Positions 2,605 through 51,952 of a stretch of 56,161 nt of DNA are shown in pieces (within the stretch, counting starts at the first letter, position 1; every line of letters starts with the position of its first letter). Source of the DNA: Chloroflexota bacterium (GTDB lineage Bacteria; Chloroflexota; Dehalococcoidia; Lucifugimonadales; Lucifugimonadaceae); assembly GCA_027623795.1 (NCBI GenBank), contig JAQBUX010000001.1, positions 1 to 56,161 on the forward strand. The letters run 5' to 3'. The notes beneath the pieces were generated by a model. It searched no databases, had not been told where the DNA came from, and worked only from the letters and a program-made list of their open reading frames with translations. The position numbers and the translations under genes were made by a program.

Positions 2605-3585
2605 CTAGAGGCTGCCCGCCTCCATCCGCCCGCCAGACAGTTGCGTGCCAATCCCGCGCGCCAACGCCAGGTCAAGCACTCGCTTGCCGACCGCTATGTC
2701 CTCCATCGCGACACCCTGTGACTCGAACAGCGTTATCTGAGAGGCGTCTGTCCGTCCCGGATGCGTACCGGCGACGATCTCGCCCAGGTTCACGACCTGT
2801 TCCCATCGGATACGACCGGCGTCGGCCGGCGCCATGAGATCGGCGCACTCGATCTTCGCCTGATCCACGTCATCCGTGGCGATGATGTCGCATTTGGCGA
2901 CCGCCCGGGTATCCAGCTCACGCCTCTGCCAGCCGTTCGCTCCGGCGGCGTTTATGTGGACGCCCTCTTTGACCATCTCGCCGAGCAGCACAGGCTCCCG
3001 GGAATTGGTTATCACGATGATGATGTCCGCGCCCTCAACGCACTCCTCGACAGACGAGGCGGCGGCCACCGGAATCTCCAACTTCTCCGTCATGACGGTG
3101 GCGAACGACTCGCGATTCTCGACGTTCCGGCTGTAAACGGCTGCGGCGCCCAGCTCTCGCACACTGGTCACGGCCTCAAGCTGGGTACGCGCCTGGTAGC
3201 CGGAGCCGATCACTGCGACCTTGCCGTTATCGCACCATCTGGCCATATGCCGCGTCCCGATACCGCTTGCCGCGCCGGTGCGAATCTGCCCCATCAAATT
3301 CGCGTCCAGTATGCCCAGAAGCCCTTCTCCCGAAGCGCCATAGATCAATACCTGGAACGCGATCCCGCCGCTGCCGCCAACATACGACTTCGAGCCCACG
3401 ATGCCTTTGGCCGGCCACCCGGCGGCCATCAGGTTGTAACTACCGGTACCAAGGGCGATCCGGCTCCGCGGATGGTTGATGACTTCGCCACGCCCGCGCG
3501 CCTCGAACACCTCCTCCACGGCCTCAAGTGCGAGGTCCATGGTGAGCAGTTCACCGACTTCGGATTCCGTCAGATAGAGGGTCAT
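2605..3585 (-). CDS. Ornithine cyclodeaminase / mu-crystallin family protein
   Basis: 326 aa. N-terminus LTESEVGELLTMDLALEAVEEVF and Rossmann segment VAVIGSGYQARTQLEAV are characteristic of the OCD/mu-crystallin family. Confidence 0.85.
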   Translation of the reverse strand: MTLYLTESEVGELLTMDLALEAVEEVFEARGRGEVINHPRSRIALGTGSYNLMAAGWPAKGIVGSKSYVGGSGGIAFQVLIYGASGEGLLGILDANLMGQIRTGAASGIGTRHMARWCDNGKVAVIGSGYQARTQLEAVTSVRELGAAAVYSRNVENRESFATVMTEKLEIPVAAASSVEECVEGADIIIVITNSREPVLLGEMVKEGVHINAAGANGWQRRELDTRAVAKCDIIATDDVDQAKIECADLMAPADAGRIRWEQVVNLGEIVAGTHPGRTDASQITLFESQGVAMEDIAVGKRVLDLALARGIGTQLSGGRMEAGSL

Positions 3586-5929: not shown

Positions 5930-6030
5930 TAAATATGCCCCGGGGGAGCTTGGGAAGCCAGGCTGAGAGGACAGTTCATAAGCTGTCGACCCCTAACCTG
6001 ATCTGGGTAATGCCAGCGGAGGGAGTGGAT
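5930..6030 (+). promoter_or_regulatory. TPP (THI-box) riboswitch aptamer
   Basis: CGGGGGAGC (5941-5949), CUGAGA (5963-5968) and AACCUGAUCUGGGUAAUGCCAGCGGAGGGA (5995-6024) match the conserved TPP riboswitch core. It sits directly upstream of a thiamine-type ABC importer. Confidence 0.85.
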
Positions 6031-6044
6031 TTTCAGCTTTCTTT

Positions 6045-6070
6045 GCCGCCCAGAATGGGCGGTTTTTTTG
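6045..6070 (+). terminator. Intrinsic terminator (likely riboswitch expression platform)
   Basis: Stem CCGCCCA/TGGGCGG with loop GAA, followed by T7 (6063-6069). It lies between the aptamer and the SD/ATG of the downstream gene. Confidence 0.7.
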
Positions 6071-6117
6071 TTCTCAGAACAAAATCAGGGGCCGTTACTT
6101 TGGTCAGGAGGCCCCTC

Positions 6118-7161
6118 ATGTCGAGGTCATCAATCGTTGCCGCCGTAATGCTCGTTCTCGTATTTGCCGTAGCTTGCGGAGGCGATGAGGACAGCGAACT
6201 CATCATCATGACCCACGATAGCTTCGACATCAGCGAAGCGGTGATTCAAGAGTTTGAGGACGCCAACGATGCCACGGTCGTCATTCAAAAAGCTGGCGAT
6301 GCCGGTGAAGCGTTGGTGCGGGCGATTTTAGAAAAAGGAAACCCGTCCGCGGACCTGCTTTACGGGATAGACAACACCTACCTCGGGCGGGCCCTTGAGC
6401 AGGAAATTTTCGACACGTACCGGCCGGAACTGTTGGATCAAGTTCCCGCGCAGTTCAAGTTCGACGAGTCCGGGCACGTGACCCCGATCAACTACGGTTA
6501 CGTGAACCTGAACTACGACGTCAATTTCCTCGCCGAAAATGACCTGACCCCTCCGGCTAGGTTGGAGGAACTGACGGCCCCCGAGTGGAAAGGAAAGCTG
6601 GTCGTACAGAATCCCGCCTCGTCATCTCCGGGTCTGGCATTTCTGATCTCGACCATCTCTTATTTTGGCGAGGACGACGAGTACGACTACCTCGATTTCT
6701 GGCGCGATCTGAAGGCGAACGATCTACTGGTCAAGGACGGGTGGAGTGACTCCTACTACACCGACTTCTCGCAGTACGGTGGGGACAGGCCGCTCGTCGT
6801 CAGTTACGCAACGAGCCCGGCCGCGGAAGTGTTCTTCTCAGAGACCCCGATCGATGTCCCGCCGACGGGCAACATCCTCATCGACAAGGCCACGTTCGCC
6901 CAGATCGAGGGCATCGGAATTCTCAAGGGCGCGAACAGCAAGGACCTTGCCAAAAAGTTCATCGACTTCGCACTCGGGACGACTTTCCAGGAAGACTTCC
7001 CGGACAAGATGTTTGTGTACCCCGTGAACCAGAATGCCAGTACGCCTGACTTCTTCAAGTTTGCCGAGGTCCCATCGCTGCCGGCCGATATCAGCGCGAA
7101 CGAGATAGGCGAGAAGCGGGAACAGTGGATCCAGGCGTGGACCAAGGTGGTGCTGCGGTAA
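6118..7161 (+). CDS. thiB: Thiamine/TPP-type ABC transporter substrate-binding lipoprotein
   Basis: AGGAGG at 6106-6111 precedes the ATG at 6118. Lipoprotein signal MSRSSIVAAVMLVLVFAVAC-GG. ThiB/iron-type periplasmic binding fold, under a TPP riboswitch. The ORF-track start at 5935 lies inside the riboswitch and is rejected. Confidence 0.8.
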   Translation: MSRSSIVAAVMLVLVFAVACGGDEDSELIIMTHDSFDISEAVIQEFEDANDATVVIQKAGDAGEALVRAILEKGNPSADLLYGIDNTYLGRALEQEIFDTYRPELLDQVPAQFKFDESGHVTPINYGYVNLNYDVNFLAENDLTPPARLEELTAPEWKGKLVVQNPASSSPGLAFLISTISYFGEDDEYDYLDFWRDLKANDLLVKDGWSDSYYTDFSQYGGDRPLVVSYATSPAAEVFFSETPIDVPPTGNILIDKATFAQIEGIGILKGANSKDLAKKFIDFALGTTFQEDFPDKMFVYPVNQNASTPDFFKFAEVPSLPADISANEIGEKREQWIQAWTKVVLR

Positions 7162-7358
7162 TGTCGCTTTCGGCCGCGGCCGGGGGAACTACGCGGACGC
7201 GTTTGACCCCGGTCGCGGCCCTCGTGGCACGGGTCGTTCTCTGTCCTCAGGCGTCGCGCCGGCAGGCTCCGTCCTGGTGGTGAACGCCAGAGTGACACCG
7301 TCTGCGAGTCTCCTAGAGATGGACAGGCGCGCTTCAACCTCGCCGGGACAGTCATCCG

Positions 7359-9008
7359 ATGACAGCTAGCCGATTATTGACACTCGGGCCCCTGGCGTTC
7401 CTTGCTGTCTTTTTTTTGTACCCGCTGGTAGCCATCCTGGGTCGAAGCTTCGGCGGTGGCGCACTCGGCCTGGACCCTTTCCAGGAGTTGCTGGGCGACT
7501 CCTACTACCTGGGTCGAATCTGGTTCACGATCTGGCAAGCGACGCTTTCAACGCTCTTGACGCTCGTCCTGGGCCTTCCTGTCGCCTACCTGTTCGCCCG
7601 GCATGAGTTCCCGGGCAAGACGATATTGAAGGCGTTAACGACCCTTCCCTTCATCATGCCCACGATCGTGGTCGCGATGGGCTTCATCGCCTTGCTTGGT
7701 CCGCAGGGGATCGTAAACACGGCGTTGTCGGACGTATTCGGCTCCAACGCGCCGCAGCTCCGGGTCACGAACACACTGACGATAATTTTCCTGGCGCACG
7801 CTTTTTACAACTACTCGATCGTCGTGAGGATCGTATCGGCGTACTGGGCCAATCTAAGCCCGCGTTTCGGGGAGAGCGCCGCCATGTTGGGCGCCGGTCG
7901 TGTGCGTACCTTCGTCCACGTAACGTTGCCGCTCCTGCTCCCCGCCGTGTGGTCGTCCGCCATCCTGGTGTTCGTATTTTCGTTCACTTCTTTCGGCGTA
8001 GTCCTCGTCCTCGGCGGGCCGCAGTTTGCCACGGTAGAGGTGGCGATCTACGAGCTGACGGTAAAACTGTTCCGGCTGGAGGTCGCCGGGGCTCTTGCGA
8101 TCATCCAGCTTGTATTCACCTACGTCTTCCTTTTCGTCTATTCCCGGGTTCAGGCGCAGAGCGCGGTCCCCATCACCCTGGTGGCAAGCGAATCCGTCTC
8201 CCGCCGTCGGAAGAGCGCCCGGGACATCCTGCTTGTCGTCGGCATCGTCGCCGGTCTGCTCGTCGTCCTCTCCCCACTACTCGCGCTCATCGAGCGGGCG
8301 GTATCGACCAGCGGCGGGTACTCGCTCACCCACTTCGTTTCCCTGTTCTCCAACGACAGCGGATCATTTTTCTACCTGTCCCCGATGAGGGTGGTCTGGA
8401 ACTCGGTGCGGTTCGCCCTGGCGTCCACGGCTATCGCCATGCTGGTCGGAACGTCCGCCGCCTACGTGATTGTTAGGCCCGGCAGGCGTTCCAGCATCCT
8501 GGACGCCCTGTTCATGCTGCCGCTTGTCGTCTCCGCCGTGACACTGGGATTCGGGTTCCTGGTGGCGTTCAATCGCCCTCCGATAGACCTGCGGGGCTCC
8601 TGGCTCATACTCGTAATCGCTCATTCGCTCATCGCATACCCGTTCGTCATCCGGACCCTGCTACCTGTGCTCCGGGGCATGCCTCCGCACCTGAAAGAAT
8701 CAGCCGCGGTGCTGGGCGCGTCTCCGTTTCGCGTCTTCATTCACATCGAGATCCCGATAATCGCCCGCGCACTTCTCGTTGGCGCCACGTTCGCCTTCGC
8801 CGTCTCCATGGGGGAGTTCGGCGCCTCGCTTTTGCTGGTGCGAGCCGAATTCACAACGATCCCAGTTGCGATATTCCGATTGCTTGGCCAGCCGGGCGAG
8901 GCGAACCTGGGGCAAGCGCTCGCCATGAGCACGCTCCTTATGGCTGTTGTCGCGTTGGGCTTCGTGGCGATCGAGCGGTTCCGCTACCGGGACGTTGGCG
9001 GATTCTGA
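7359..9008 (+). CDS. thiP: ABC transporter permease, duplicated (two-domain) thiamine/iron type
   Basis: 549 aa, about 12 TM segments. Two BPD-transporter (EAA-loop) modules (ESAAMLGAGRVRTF... and ESAAVLGASPFRVF...). Confidence 0.85.
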   Translation: MTASRLLTLGPLAFLAVFFLYPLVAILGRSFGGGALGLDPFQELLGDSYYLGRIWFTIWQATLSTLLTLVLGLPVAYLFARHEFPGKTILKALTTLPFIMPTIVVAMGFIALLGPQGIVNTALSDVFGSNAPQLRVTNTLTIIFLAHAFYNYSIVVRIVSAYWANLSPRFGESAAMLGAGRVRTFVHVTLPLLLPAVWSSAILVFVFSFTSFGVVLVLGGPQFATVEVAIYELTVKLFRLEVAGALAIIQLVFTYVFLFVYSRVQAQSAVPITLVASESVSRRRKSARDILLVVGIVAGLLVVLSPLLALIERAVSTSGGYSLTHFVSLFSNDSGSFFYLSPMRVVWNSVRFALASTAIAMLVGTSAAYVIVRPGRRSSILDALFMLPLVVSAVTLGFGFLVAFNRPPIDLRGSWLILVIAHSLIAYPFVIRTLLPVLRGMPPHLKESAAVLGASPFRVFIHIEIPIIARALLVGATFAFAVSMGEFGASLLLVRAEFTTIPVAIFRLLGQPGEANLGQALAMSTLLMAVVALGFVAIERFRYRDVGGF

Positions 9009-10090
9009 TGCCGTTGCTTGAGGTAAACAGGGCATTCAATTCCTACGGCGCGGTACCCGTTATTAGCGACGTCACGTTGAATGCGGAGCGCGGTGAACTG
9101 GTTTGCCTGCTAGGCCCAAGCGGGTGCGGCAAGACCACGCTCCTCCGGCTCATCGCGGGTCTGGAGACGCTGGACTCAGGGACCATCTCGTTCGACGGCG
9201 CGAACTTGCACAGCGTGGCGCCTCACTCGCGAGGGTTCGGGCTCATGTTCCAGGACCTGGCCCTCTTCCCGCACATGAACGTGTATGGGAACGTCGGGTT
9301 TGGGCTAAGGATGCAGGGACTGTCGAGCGGGGCGGTTCGCAGACGAGTCGACGAAATGCTGGAGCTCGTCGATCTCGTCAACTACGGGGATCGAAAGGTC
9401 CATGAACTTTCCGGCGGGGAACGTCAACGCGTTGCTCTGGCACGGTCTCTCGCGCCGGCGCCCAAGTTACTGATGCTGGACGAGCCCCTCGCATCGCTCG
9501 ATCGGGTTCTGCGAGAGGCGCTCCAGATTCAAGTCCGTGCGATCTTGAAAGAGGTCGGCGTGACTTCGATATATGTGACTCACGACAAAGACGAAGCGTT
9601 TGCCATCGCGGACACAATCGTTTTCATGAAACGCGGATCGGTCGTGCAGGCAGGTCCGCCCGAAACGCTTTTCCGGGCTCCCGCGACTGAACTCGTGGCC
9701 CGTTCCCTGGGCATCAGGAACATCATCGCCGGGACGATCGTAGGGGCCTCCGAAGATGTCGAGATTGCGACTTCTGTCGGCACGTTGACCGTGGGCGGCC
9801 CGGCGCCTGCGGAGATGTCGGTCGGAGATGAAGTCCTCGTACTAATCGATGAGAGACAGCTTTTCGTCGAGCCAATTCACGACGACCCCTCGGCGGATGT
9901 GATCGTGTTGAACGGGGTTGTACGAGAGCGGAAATTTCGGGGTGGAGAAGCCGAAATCCACGTCACAGTTGGGAACGATGAGTTGGTGTCAATCGTCTCG
10001 TCGGCGGACCCTCGCTCGGACGTGAAAGCGGGACAAGACGTGTGCATTGTCATCCCTCCGAAGGCCATCACGCTCTTGCCGACCGCTTAA
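9008..10090 (+). CDS. ABC transporter ATP-binding protein (PotA/FbpC/ThiQ-like, with C-terminal TOBE-like extension)
   Basis: Walker A GPSGCGKTT, signature LSGGERQR, Walker B LLMLDEP. ATGA overlap with the permease stop. Confidence 0.9.
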   Translation: MPLLEVNRAFNSYGAVPVISDVTLNAERGELVCLLGPSGCGKTTLLRLIAGLETLDSGTISFDGANLHSVAPHSRGFGLMFQDLALFPHMNVYGNVGFGLRMQGLSSGAVRRRVDEMLELVDLVNYGDRKVHELSGGERQRVALARSLAPAPKLLMLDEPLASLDRVLREALQIQVRAILKEVGVTSIYVTHDKDEAFAIADTIVFMKRGSVVQAGPPETLFRAPATELVARSLGIRNIIAGTIVGASEDVEIATSVGTLTVGGPAPAEMSVGDEVLVLIDERQLFVEPIHDDPSADVIVLNGVVRERKFRGGEAEIHVTVGNDELVSIVSSADPRSDVKAGQDVCIVIPPKAITLLPTA

Positions 10091-49983: not shown

Positions 49984-50946
49984 CTAGTAAGTGAACATCT
50001 CTCCGACCGAGTGGCCGTTGTGAATCCTGTATATAGCTTCACCCAGAAGGTCGCACGATTGGAGAACAGTCAACTTCGGGTGGCTCTTCTCTTCTCCGAT
50101 CGGCACCGTGTCGGTGACGATAAGCTCAACGAGGCCCTTGAATGCACAGATGCGGTCCGTTGCCCCGTTCGAAAAAACACCGTGGCTCGCCGTGGCGTAA
50201 AGCTGCGTCGCCCCGGCATTCTTGAGCGCTCCAAACGCCGATATCAGCGAGCCGCCCGTATCTATCTCATCGTCGAACGTCAGGACGGGCCGTCCGGCCA
50301 CATCTCCAATTACGGACAGGACTTCCGTTGCGTCGTCATTTCCGATACGACGCTTTTCTACGATCGTGAGTGGAGCGTTCAATCGTTGTGCCACGTCCCT
50401 CGCCGCCTTCGAGATACCGACATCGGTCGCTGCGACTACCAGGTCCGGAATTCGCTTCTTGAGGAAGTAGTCGATAAGCAACGGAACGACCGTTAATTCG
50501 TCGACCGGGATGTTGAAGAATCCCTGTATCTGTCCGGCATGAAGATCGACCGTCACCACACGATCCGCCCCGGCGGTCGTAATCAGGTCAGCAACCAGGC
50601 GGCCGGTGATCGGCACGCGAGGCTGGTCTTTCTTGTCTGTACGCCCGTATCCGTAGTACGGGATCACCGCTGTGATCCGTCCCGCCGATGCACGCTTTGC
50701 TGCGTCGATCGCGATCAACAACTCCATGATGTTGTCGTTGACAGGGGCCGACGTCGGTTGGACGAAAAACACATCGCGTGAACGGACGTTCTCGAGGATC
50801 CGAACGAACGTGTTTTCGTTGCGGAACTTCTTGACCTCCATGCGGCCGAGCGGCATGTGCAGGTATTCACAGATGGCGGCTGCCAACCGTGGATGCGCAC
50901 CGACCGAGAATACGGCCATATCTCCAAGCGAATATGAGGAGTTCAA
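49984..50946 (-). CDS. prs: Ribose-phosphate pyrophosphokinase
   Basis: Contains YYGYGRTDKK and the PRPP-binding loop VLTFDDEIDTGGSL. Start could alternatively be M10 (50919). Confidence 0.92.
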   Translation of the reverse strand: MNSSYSLGDMAVFSVGAHPRLAAAICEYLHMPLGRMEVKKFRNENTFVRILENVRSRDVFFVQPTSAPVNDNIMELLIAIDAAKRASAGRITAVIPYYGYGRTDKKDQPRVPITGRLVADLITTAGADRVVTVDLHAGQIQGFFNIPVDELTVVPLLIDYFLKKRIPDLVVAATDVGISKAARDVAQRLNAPLTIVEKRRIGNDDATEVLSVIGDVAGRPVLTFDDEIDTGGSLISAFGALKNAGATQLYATASHGVFSNGATDRICAFKGLVELIVTDTVPIGEEKSHPKLTVLQSCDLLGEAIYRIHNGHSVGEMFTY

Positions 50947-51515
50947 GCTGCGATCCGTCCCTGCGAGAGTTGGATGCGGGTTCTGTTAGACGCGATGTAA
51001 TGACGCACATCGCATCGACCGGCCTCAGACGCCCACCGTCGCGTCAATCGCGGGCGGTCCGGGACACTATCCCGAAGCTGATCGAACCGTCGGGAGGCAA
51101 GCGGCGACCTGCGTCGCATGTGTCGCCGCCGCACGCCGACGGCTGTCAGGATTGTAGCACCGGGCCGCCAAATTCCTCGGTGCGGCGCACGCCAAGTCCA
51201 CCCACCAGCGATCTCTTGTTCAACAATACGGGACGTACCCCCAAAGACCTCGCAGCGCCGATGGAGGTCTAGCGAGTCTCGATTTCGATCGCGGTTCGGA
51301 CGGAACGCGTCACCATCGTGCGCGTCTCCGGTAGGCCTGACAACGCCGAATTTTTCAGGCGAGAGCTGAATCGATTTATGAGACCGCTCCGATCTACTTG
51401 CGAACGCCCCCGACTCACATGCGGCGCGTCTCAGTCTGGGAAAACGGGCGTCAGTTGAAATCCGGGGAGACACGAGTTCCGAACTGGGCGCCAGTACCCT
51501 GGCCGGGTCAAACGA

Positions 51516-51878
51516 TCACTCCCGGGCGATCGCTTCGATATCCGCCTTACGGCCGCCGAGGATGTGCCTGCTCGGATCGTCGGTCCTGATCACGATGGGA
51601 CGCCGTATCAGCCGGGGCTCCTTGAGCATCAGGTCGATGAGATCGGCGTCGCTCAGTTCACCTCGTCTATCGCTGTACTCGCGTGCGCTCGGACTGCGCC
51701 ACGAGAATAGCTCGTCCATAGTGACTATCGAGGCGAGTTCCTCAAGCTCACCCCGGGAAAACGGGTCCTTGAAAAAATCCCGCGACTCCATCTCGACACC
51801 TGCTTGCGAGAGCGCCGCTCCCGCTTTCTTGCAAGTGCTTCACCGGGTCCAGTGGTAAAACTTTGCCTTCACCGTCAT
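51516..51878 (-). CDS. ArsC/Spx-family thioredoxin-fold protein with in-frame TGA at the active-site position (candidate selenoprotein, UxxC)
   Basis: GGAGGA (51891..51886) lies 7 nt before the ATG at 51878. The translation is MTVKAKFYHWTR-[TGA 51842..51840]-STCKKAGAALSQAGVEMESRDFFKD...LIRRPIV. It aligns to the family N-terminus (...Y..KNCDTCKKA...), with TGA replacing the first Cys. Confidence 0.6.
51803..51835 (-). promoter_or_regulatory. Stem-loop immediately 3' of the in-frame TGA (SECIS-like candidate)
   Basis: Minus strand: UGA-agca-CUUGCAAGAAAGCGGGAGC-GGC-GCUCUCGCAAG. The core is an 8-bp stem GCGGGAGC/GCUCUCGC (one G-U) with a G-rich apical loop about 20 nt from the UGA. Confidence 0.4.
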
Positions 51879-51952
51879 GGAAATATCCTCCGTCTGCAGG
51901 TCATGGCCGATTCCAGATGGTCATGTTCAGCACCTTCGGCTAGCATCGCACA

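Follow-up and report, generated by a model that had tools for sequence, protein, structure and literature searches.

Gene structure at the locus

We analyzed a short gene on the reverse strand of a 56,161-nt stretch of DNA (contig JAQBUX010000001.1 of the Chloroflexota assembly GCA_027623795.1; hereafter, the window), in which an in-frame UGA codon stands where members of the ArsC/Spx family carry a catalytic cysteine. An initial annotation, made from the sequence alone, had proposed this gene as a candidate selenoprotein, and each of the computational checks proposed there that we ran supported that interpretation. The list of open reading frames (ORFs) for the window offers only a 91-aa fragment starting at an internal ATG, as the annotation had noted, and the alternative start to which it had drawn attention, an ATG behind a GGAGGA-N7 Shine–Dalgarno (SD) sequence, is present farther upstream (Table 1). 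Read from the ATG at 51878, the product is MTVKAKFYHWTR-U-STCKKAGAALSQAGVEMESRDFF...EAIARE, with U denoting selenocysteine (Sec). After U13, the translation continues as STCKKAGAAL..., and the TGA at 51842-51840 is the sole in-frame stop before the end of the gene.

Motifs of the AGGA/GGAG type occur at the matching offset upstream of the start in 12/12 close relatives. At the position of the internal methionine, Met30, other family members have Val, Ile, Leu or Phe codons, and an ORF beginning there has neither strand β1 nor the redox motif. Three assemblies, which derive from at least two samples, agree completely in the TGA, the SD sequence and the hairpin described below; the TGA at 51842-51840 is, therefore, not an assembly error.

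Table 1. Features of the candidate selenoprotein locus, in window coordinates (SECIS, selenocysteine insertion sequence; MFE, minimum free energy)
Feature	Position	Strand	Remarks
Complete coding sequence of the putative selenoprotein	51516..51878	-	120 codons plus terminal TGA; Sec is codon 13
SD sequence GGAGGA	51886..51891	-	7-nt spacer to ATG; read from sequence
True start ATG	51876..51878	-	29 codons upstream of the start in the ORF list; conserved in 13/13 members of the window's clade
In-frame UGA, predicted Sec13	51840..51842	-	First residue of U-x-x-C (U-S-T-C)
Cys16 codon TGC	51831..51833	-	Putative resolving cysteine of U-x-x-C; nt 10-12 counted from the U of UGA
Predicted SECIS core, 8-bp upper stem and GGC triloop	51806..51824	-	GCGGGAGC-GGC-GCUCUCGC; also encodes A19-Q25
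Plausible extended SECIS of the window's clade	51796..51838	-	Lower helix 51838-51831 with 51803-51796; part of the MFE structure
Internal ATG (Met30)	51789..51791	-	False start of the 91-aa ORF 51516..51791; ATG in 1/77 homologous genes
Ordinary terminal stop, also TGA	51516..51518	-	Read from sequence and translation

A covarying hairpin follows the conserved UGA codon

For a comparative view of the UGA codon, we collected 110 relatives by protein search and scanned contigs representing one genome per species with tblastn, taking the best 80 of 131 matches as homologous loci (numbered L, with protein relatives numbered P). All 80 loci came from metagenome-assembled genomes (MAGs) of Dehalococcoidia/SAR202/Chloroflexota or of Syntrophales/Smithella. 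The aligned codon was readable in 76 of them and proved to be TGA in 49, TGC in 18 and TGT in 9, with no instance of TAA or TAG. Adding the window itself gives 77 genes, with 50 TGA (Sec forms), 27 TGC/TGT (Cys forms) and 0 TAA/TAG. The twelve closest relatives, which share 69-80% identity with the window protein over residues 1-120 (tblastn, full length), all carry TGA. On both sides of the codon the flanks are kept, with 'FYxW' upstream and 'xTC[KR]' downstream. Moreover, approximately 40 Dehalococcoidia loci, TGA and Cys forms alike, are flanked as in the window by genes for IspH and a major facilitator superfamily (MFS) transporter on one side and by prs and secA on the other; as both forms occupy the same syntenic position, they are orthologues at one locus. 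The initial annotation had suggested looking for Sec and Cys orthologues with conserved flanks and had regarded scattered stops as the mark of a pseudogene; the former were found, and a further in-frame stop occurs in only 1/77 genes (L075).

The substitution pattern extends this picture to the codons that conventional gene models leave out. Over the 11 codons from ATG to TGA, genes of the window's clade show 132/60/341 changes at codon positions 1/2/3, the same pattern as in the region downstream (1280/658/3357), while changes in the 36 nt that precede the ATG are spread evenly (515/468/483). The switch from flat to third-position-dominated substitution falls exactly at the ATG (51876-51878). 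By this measure, the codons upstream of the TGA, whose conservation the annotation had named as a test, are under purifying selection and evolve as coding sequence.

Immediately 3' of the UGA, the window contains a predicted SECIS hairpin, the core of which pairs 51824-51817 with 51813-51806 around the apical loop GGC (51816-51814). Counted from the U of UGA, the core occupies nt 19-37, beginning 15 nt and reaching its loop 23 nt after the UGA, with an energy of -11.9 kcal/mol. The initial annotation had described this core correctly, placed the loop about 20 nt downstream and let the stem-loop start 4 nt after the UGA; the core stands, the distance to the loop is 23 nt and the start has to be moved, as the lower helix described below begins 1 nt after the UGA. 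In the published model of bacterial SECIS (bSECIS) elements, the apical loop has 3-9 nt with a G within its first two positions, usually as G[G|U]N, the upper stem has 4-16 bp, the loop lies 16-37 nt from the UGA and the MFE is at or below -7.5 kcal/mol (PMC13188914). The window hairpin (GGC, 8 bp, 23 nt, -11.9 kcal/mol) lies within all of these limits, so that the annotation's suggestion of a bacterial SECIS held up against the published model, with covariation in addition.

All 50 TGA-form sequences carry an 8-bp hairpin with a 3-nt loop at nt 19-37. The loops are GUU (26), GGC (12), GUA (5), GUC (3), GGU (2), UGC (1) and UGU (1) and, thus, follow G[G/U]N in 48/50 Sec forms and have the G at the second position in 2/50. 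Over 49 distinct Sec-form sequences, 96.9% of the alignment cells are paired, and compensatory double changes occur at three of the eight SECIS pairs (38 cells). In 500 shuffles, the observed pairing or covariation score was never reached, and sliding the partners by 1-3 columns lowered pairing to 35-72%. Among the 27 Cys forms, pairing in these columns is 31.7%, a level that shuffles also reach, and the hairpin energies are all positive; the Cys-form loci (L014-L044, L051, L068 and L073) retain no SECIS remnant at nt 19-37 after the Cys codon. Accordingly divided are the energies at or below -7.5 kcal/mol, found in 46/50 Sec forms and 0/27 Cys forms. Judged by these alignments, the comparative evidence puts the hairpin far beyond chance.

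Beneath the core hairpin, and separated from it by an internal loop, a lower helix (nt 5-12 with nt 40-47) is 95% paired in the 13 members of the window's clade. Its changes are one-sided and wobble compatible; because compensatory changes are lacking, we regard this helix as a plausible structure only. The hairpin also has a coding role, its 3' arm specifying L23-S24-Q25. The motif 'L[S/L]Q' occurs only in Sec forms and Cys forms have 'LD' there, a difference explained by the need of the hairpin to encode A19-Q25 as well. Dual coding, therefore, has a visible peptide cost in the 'LSQ' confined to Sec forms. Rfam was searched with the entire window at gathering thresholds and with 51700-51900 at E <= 10; no SECIS family was returned, the matches being at chance level apart from an unrelated thiamine pyrophosphate (TPP) riboswitch. 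With the consensus bacterial SECIS (bSECISearch model, E. coli fdhF paradigm), the window element shares a stem-loop within the coding region just 3' of the UGA; it differs in being family specific, common, with covariation, to genes of Chloroflexota and Syntrophales.

Several family members vary around the U-x-x-C motif. The G at nt 11, within the Cys16 codon, is invariant across the 50 aligned Sec-form sequences, and Cys16 itself is kept in all family members except L045. This Sec form (L045, 3037-3050) reads U-Q-T-S, with Ser in place of the resolving Cys, and resembles the UxxS of the other catalogued ArsC selenoprotein family. The Syntrophales and Dehalococcoidales forms (L046-L080) have an extra conserved Cys four residues before Sec (F-Y-C-W-x-K-U-x-T-C), at a position where the window's clade has His; this Cys may be a third redox-active residue. 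In L075, at ~3025-3040, the second in-frame TGA replaces the Trp codon of the 'FYCW' strand (...DFYC*VK*NTC...), for which an error in sequencing, decay of this copy or a change from TGG to TGA are possible explanations.

Family, fold and candidate function

Profile searches were run with the window protein after replacing U by C. Membership in the ArsC/Spx family, as initially proposed, was borne out by a match to Pfam ArsC (PF03960; 50.6 bits against a cutoff of 24, E = 2.4e-13, residues 8-108), which precomputed annotations also place on nearly all relatives. The best NCBIfam model was TIGR01617, 'Spx/MgsR family RNA polymerase-binding regulatory protein' (arsC_related), which the window protein matches with 64.4 bits, below the cutoff of 75.05; eight family representatives scored 63.6-86.4 bits, with 4/8 above the cutoff. 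Scores were well below the cutoff for TIGR00014, the glutaredoxin-type arsenate reductases (47.5 bits versus 106.05), and for NF041106, 'ArsC family (seleno)protein' (23.5 bits for the window protein and 23.3-41.2 for the eight representatives versus 85).

As a structural model, we used the AlphaFold2 prediction for P0038, a Cys orthologue from a SAR202 bacterium that is 51% identical to the window protein (predicted local distance difference test (pLDDT), 93.5). Foldseek aligned this model with Bacillus subtilis Spx (1z3e; template modeling (TM) score, 0.88), YffB (1rw1; 0.86) and R773 ArsC (1i9d; 0.77), and the closest solved structure by sequence was the Spx protein 3l78 (E = 7.9e-9). In a rough alignment to reference proteins, Sec13 falls on Spx Cys10 and ArsC Cys12, where the initial annotation had placed the catalytic N-terminal Cys, and Cys16 on Spx Cys13 (U13-S-T-C16 versus C10-T-S-C13). 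Invariant residues of the family include RDFF, (W)RSPS and EPRLxRRP. Set against the catalytic Cys12 and the Arg60/Arg94/Arg107 triad of ArsC, this rough alignment shows the nucleophile (Sec13) and Arg residues within 'WRSPS' and 'RRP', and the Arg107 column is not conserved across the family. HMMER and MAFFT alignments place a two-residue gap at the Spx 'DG' 51-52, a placement that is approximate at such identity, and show the family ending ~15 residues before the Spx C terminus.

On these grounds, 51878-51516 is likely to be a single intact gene of a Dehalococcoidia (SAR202-like) host. Its product would be a selenoprotein of 120 residues with the ArsC/Spx thioredoxin-like fold, probably acting as an oxidoreductase through U13 and C16; that the gene encodes Sec at all is, from the comparative evidence, very likely. 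The analysis shows the gene structure, the Sec/Cys orthology, the conserved and covarying SECIS and the fold; Sec insertion at the UGA itself, the catalytic cycle and the substrate are inferred. In the model that we propose, the hairpin would bring SelB, loaded with Sec-tRNA(Sec), to a ribosome that has the UGA in its A site. Sec13 would sit after strand β1, at the N terminus of helix α1, with Cys16 one turn later. Sec13 would attack an oxidized substrate (a disulfide, sulfenate or similar), Cys16 would resolve the adduct to leave an intramolecular Sec13-Cys16 selenenylsulfide, and a thioredoxin- or glutaredoxin-type system would reduce this bond again. Going by fold and motif for the chemistry, we consider with moderate confidence that the protein is a general redox enzyme (a selenol/thiol oxidoreductase) rather than a regulator or arsenate reductase, because two residues of the Spx loop and the Spx tail are missing, because, in comparison with ArsC, a second redox residue is present and no Arg107 equivalent is conserved, and because neither ars genes nor a recurrent redox partner lie nearby.

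A number of observations weigh against this interpretation. Among characterized proteins, those nearest in sequence and in fold are Spx regulators and not enzymes, and both the alignment to reference proteins mentioned above and the family tree presented below are rough. The conserved neighbors are housekeeping genes that vary by clade and, therefore, give no pointer to substrate or reductant. No selA, selB, selD or tRNA-Sec gene was found in the 56-kb window, part of a 59-kb metagenome scaffold, or in the 80 flanks (ARAGORN was applied to the window and all 80 loci for tRNA-Sec), and a codon-usage score with the target gene as positive control revealed no second TGA-interrupted gene in the window. 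We, therefore, infer Sec machinery in the host from the lineage to which it belongs and from the pattern of conservation; in BSepDB, the ten bacteria with the most selenoprotein genes include Dehalococcoidia MAGs with 49 and 46 (PMC13326102). Finally, the fold computed from the window sequence alone is suggestive and only modestly above chance, the two-tier stem-loop 3' of the TGA having -23 kcal/mol and z = -2.1, with 5/200 shuffles as good.

The first alternative concerns function: the selenoprotein could be a redox-sensing regulator of the Spx/MgsR type, in which a U13-C16 selenenylsulfide switches binding to the RNA polymerase α-subunit C-terminal domain (α-CTD) and no catalysis takes place. 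The family resemblance is real, as TIGR01617 is the best NCBIfam model, with some relatives above 75.05, the nearest structures by sequence (3l78) and fold (1z3e) are Spx proteins and the CxxC position is identical. Beyond this redox dyad (C10-x-x-C13 versus U13-x-x-C16), the 'RRP' motif and the length of the core domain are shared with B. subtilis Spx. However, the window protein itself has Sec for the first Cys and falls under the TIGR01617 cutoff, and the family lacks the two residues at the Asp51-Gly52 loop with which Spx contacts the α-CTD and has no Spx C-terminal tail. The host phyla also differ; Spx function is established in Firmicutes and is not known from Chloroflexota or Syntrophales. 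The loci examined showed no genomic context typical of a regulator, and Sec is typically selected at catalytic redox sites (PMC1794560). We, thus, consider a regulatory role unlikely. Less likely again is its fuller version, a selenium-dependent redox switch on RNA polymerase, in which a Sec-containing transcription regulator would respond at an oxidant threshold below that of the Cys-Cys switch of Firmicute Spx. If true, this would be the first selenoprotein known as a regulator rather than an enzyme, and selenium supply would be linked to the stress regulon of Dehalococcoidia/SAR202 bacteria, which are abundant in the ocean.

A second functional alternative, a glutaredoxin-coupled arsenate reductase of the R773 ArsC type with Sec13 in place of the Cys12 that attacks arsenate, appears very unlikely. 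It draws on the shared PF03960 superfamily, on the alignment of Sec13 with ArsC Cys12 and of the RRP motif with ArsC Arg94-Pro95 (the Arg of its 'RP' motif) and on the catalogued existence of Sec-containing TIGR00014-type proteins with UxxS (PMC13188914). Against it, the TIGR00014 score of 47.5 bits is far short of the 106 cutoff, the motif is UxxC and not the CxxS/UxxS of ArsC, no equivalent of Arg107 is conserved in the family and the fold match to R773 ArsC (TM score, 0.77; TIGR00014; 1i9d) is weaker than that to Spx or YffB. An ars operon context is also missing, with no arsR, arsB/ACR3, arsA or arsJ in the neighborhood, and the syntenic MFS protein fits no arsenic transporter model.

The remaining alternatives dispute Sec rather than the role of the protein. 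The UGA might be read as Trp or Gly under a reassigned code, or as Trp or Cys by hairpin-stimulated near-cognate suppression. In other systems, structure downstream of a stop codon can stimulate its read-through, and two database entries (P0001 and P0039) translate the codon as W. P0001 also reads its own terminal TGA as W, which traces this residue to a gene caller using a TGA=Trp table; in both entries, such a code was apparently applied to short contigs of ordinary code-11 bacteria. TGA terminates the window gene, neighboring genes in the window and 31 of 76 family members (the others end in TAA, 23, or TAG, 22), including 20 Sec-form genes among the 76 loci. As TGA, thus, still serves as an ordinary terminal stop in the family, it has not been reassigned genome-wide. 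Homologues show Cys at the aligned position and never Trp or Gly, and the hairpin has the geometry and G[G/U]N loop of SelB-binding SECIS elements, which together make a non-Sec decoding highly improbable. Weakest is the reading of the TGA as a true stop (a pseudogene, a sequencing error or a real 91-aa product from Met30), which is barely credible and, by comparative data, already contradicted: all gene callers report the 91-aa ORF and no Sec machinery is visible in the window, but TGA recurs at the exact codon in 49 other species-level genomes with TAA/TAG never found, which together with the covarying hairpin makes a dead gene impossible, the upstream codons are under purifying selection, Met30 is conserved in 1/77, the 91-aa product would lack β1 and the redox motif of a fold predicted at pLDDT 93.5, three assemblies are identical and a covarying hairpin restricted to TGA forms would be left without a role.

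Genomic setting, known relatives and annotation

Outside the syntenic Dehalococcoidia loci, neighbors in other clades include mutS/mutL, homoserine dehydrogenase and short-chain dehydrogenases/reductases (SDRs). In one Dehalococcoidia clade (L033, L037, L041 and L042), the selenoprotein gene lies between mutS and mutL, a setting from which we conclude that it has moved between housekeeping neighborhoods. Clustering and Pfam/NCBIfam assignment of the conserved neighbors revealed no sel genes, ars genes or recurrent redox partner among them. Inspection of neighbors with SelB-, SelA- or SelD-like sizes identified a double SDR, a homoserine dehydrogenase and an unannotated ORF, and a 'tRNA-???' reported by ARAGORN at L049 was not confirmed by Rfam.

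We examined the history of the Sec/Cys position with a neighbor-joining tree built with the Sec/Cys column masked; the tree is rough and its sample is limited to the best 80 of 131 matches. The 27 Cys forms group in a single clade that lies among four clades of Sec forms, and the genes from Syntrophales fall inside Dehalococcoidales-type sequences. Together with the shared hairpin, this topology suggests that Sec is ancestral in the sampled family, that a single Sec-to-Cys reversion was accompanied by complete SECIS loss and that the gene was transferred between phyla. The family also offers a natural experiment, with one syntenic locus occupied either by Sec plus SECIS or by Cys without SECIS.

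Proteins of this kind have been catalogued before. 'ArsC-like' selenoproteins were listed in 2006 (PMC1794560), and the selenoproteome survey of marine Global Ocean Sampling (GOS) data by Zhang & Gladyshev in 2008 includes 'Arsenate reductase 2, cd03032, UxxC' (PMC2398784), in agreement with the statement in the initial annotation that ArsC-like Sec proteins had been seen in marine surveys. Later reviews list an 'Arsenate reductase-like protein, UxxC' (PMC9312934; PMC13188914, there tied to NF041106). The GOS 'Arsenate reductase 2' shares with the window gene the ArsC/Spx-superfamily fold, Sec as the first residue of UxxC, abundant Cys homologues and an origin in marine bacteria, and its identification likewise relied on a Sec/Cys pair together with a bacterial SECIS located downstream. 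We take cd03032 to be the Spx-type subfamily of ArsC in CDD, in agreement with TIGR01617 as the best match here. Matched by description rather than by sequence, the window gene probably belongs to this GOS subfamily. Our analysis goes beyond that entry in taxonomy (Dehalococcoidia/SAR202 and Syntrophales), synteny, SECIS covariation and the phylogenetic pattern of Sec and Cys. NF041106 (ArsC_rel_Se_1) likewise describes an ArsC-superfamily selenoprotein with UxxC, but the window family is a different subfamily outside this curated model. The gene, therefore, belongs to an already catalogued kind (UxxC, Spx-type), in a subfamily that the curated model does not cover.

This position outside NF041106 may well explain the truncated 91-aa calls. 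Standard pipelines do shorten the gene, as the initial annotation had supposed: most of the 110 protein relatives are called at ~91 aa, with a minority at full length carrying C-S/T-T-C, and NCBI entries for relatives include truncated 94-aa 'arsenate reductase' or 'hypothetical protein' calls. In at least 49 species-level genomes and in most of ~100 protein clusters, the gene is carried as a ~91-aa fragment without its active site. With a dedicated protein plus SECIS model, these calls would be corrected in genomes of Dehalococcoidia/SAR202 and Syntrophales. For a lineage that is abundant in the dark ocean, the result contributes one further well-supported selenoprotein, the SECIS of which is clean and covarying. 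The general understanding of selenoproteins is unchanged by it, the value lying mainly in annotation and in a clean SECIS example.

Two further features of the window were recorded. Between the selenoprotein stop and prs lies an unusually long gap of ~570 nt (50943-51515, reverse strand), which holds a 176-aa ORF (50943-51473) with a low GC content at third codon positions (0.59). This ORF is among the gene calls of one pipeline and has no match in NCBIfam, and the corresponding gap in the relative L002 is only ~330 nt; the region may represent an extended prs leader or a small gene specific to the lineage. The TPP riboswitch (RF00059; 5932-6041, forward strand; 65 bits, E = 1.5e-10) is located directly upstream of an ORF at 5935-7161 that is followed by two ORFs resembling ATP-binding cassette (ABC) transporter genes (7359-9008 and 9008-10090). 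The riboswitch and the ORFs spanning 5935-10090 probably constitute a thiamine-uptake operon.

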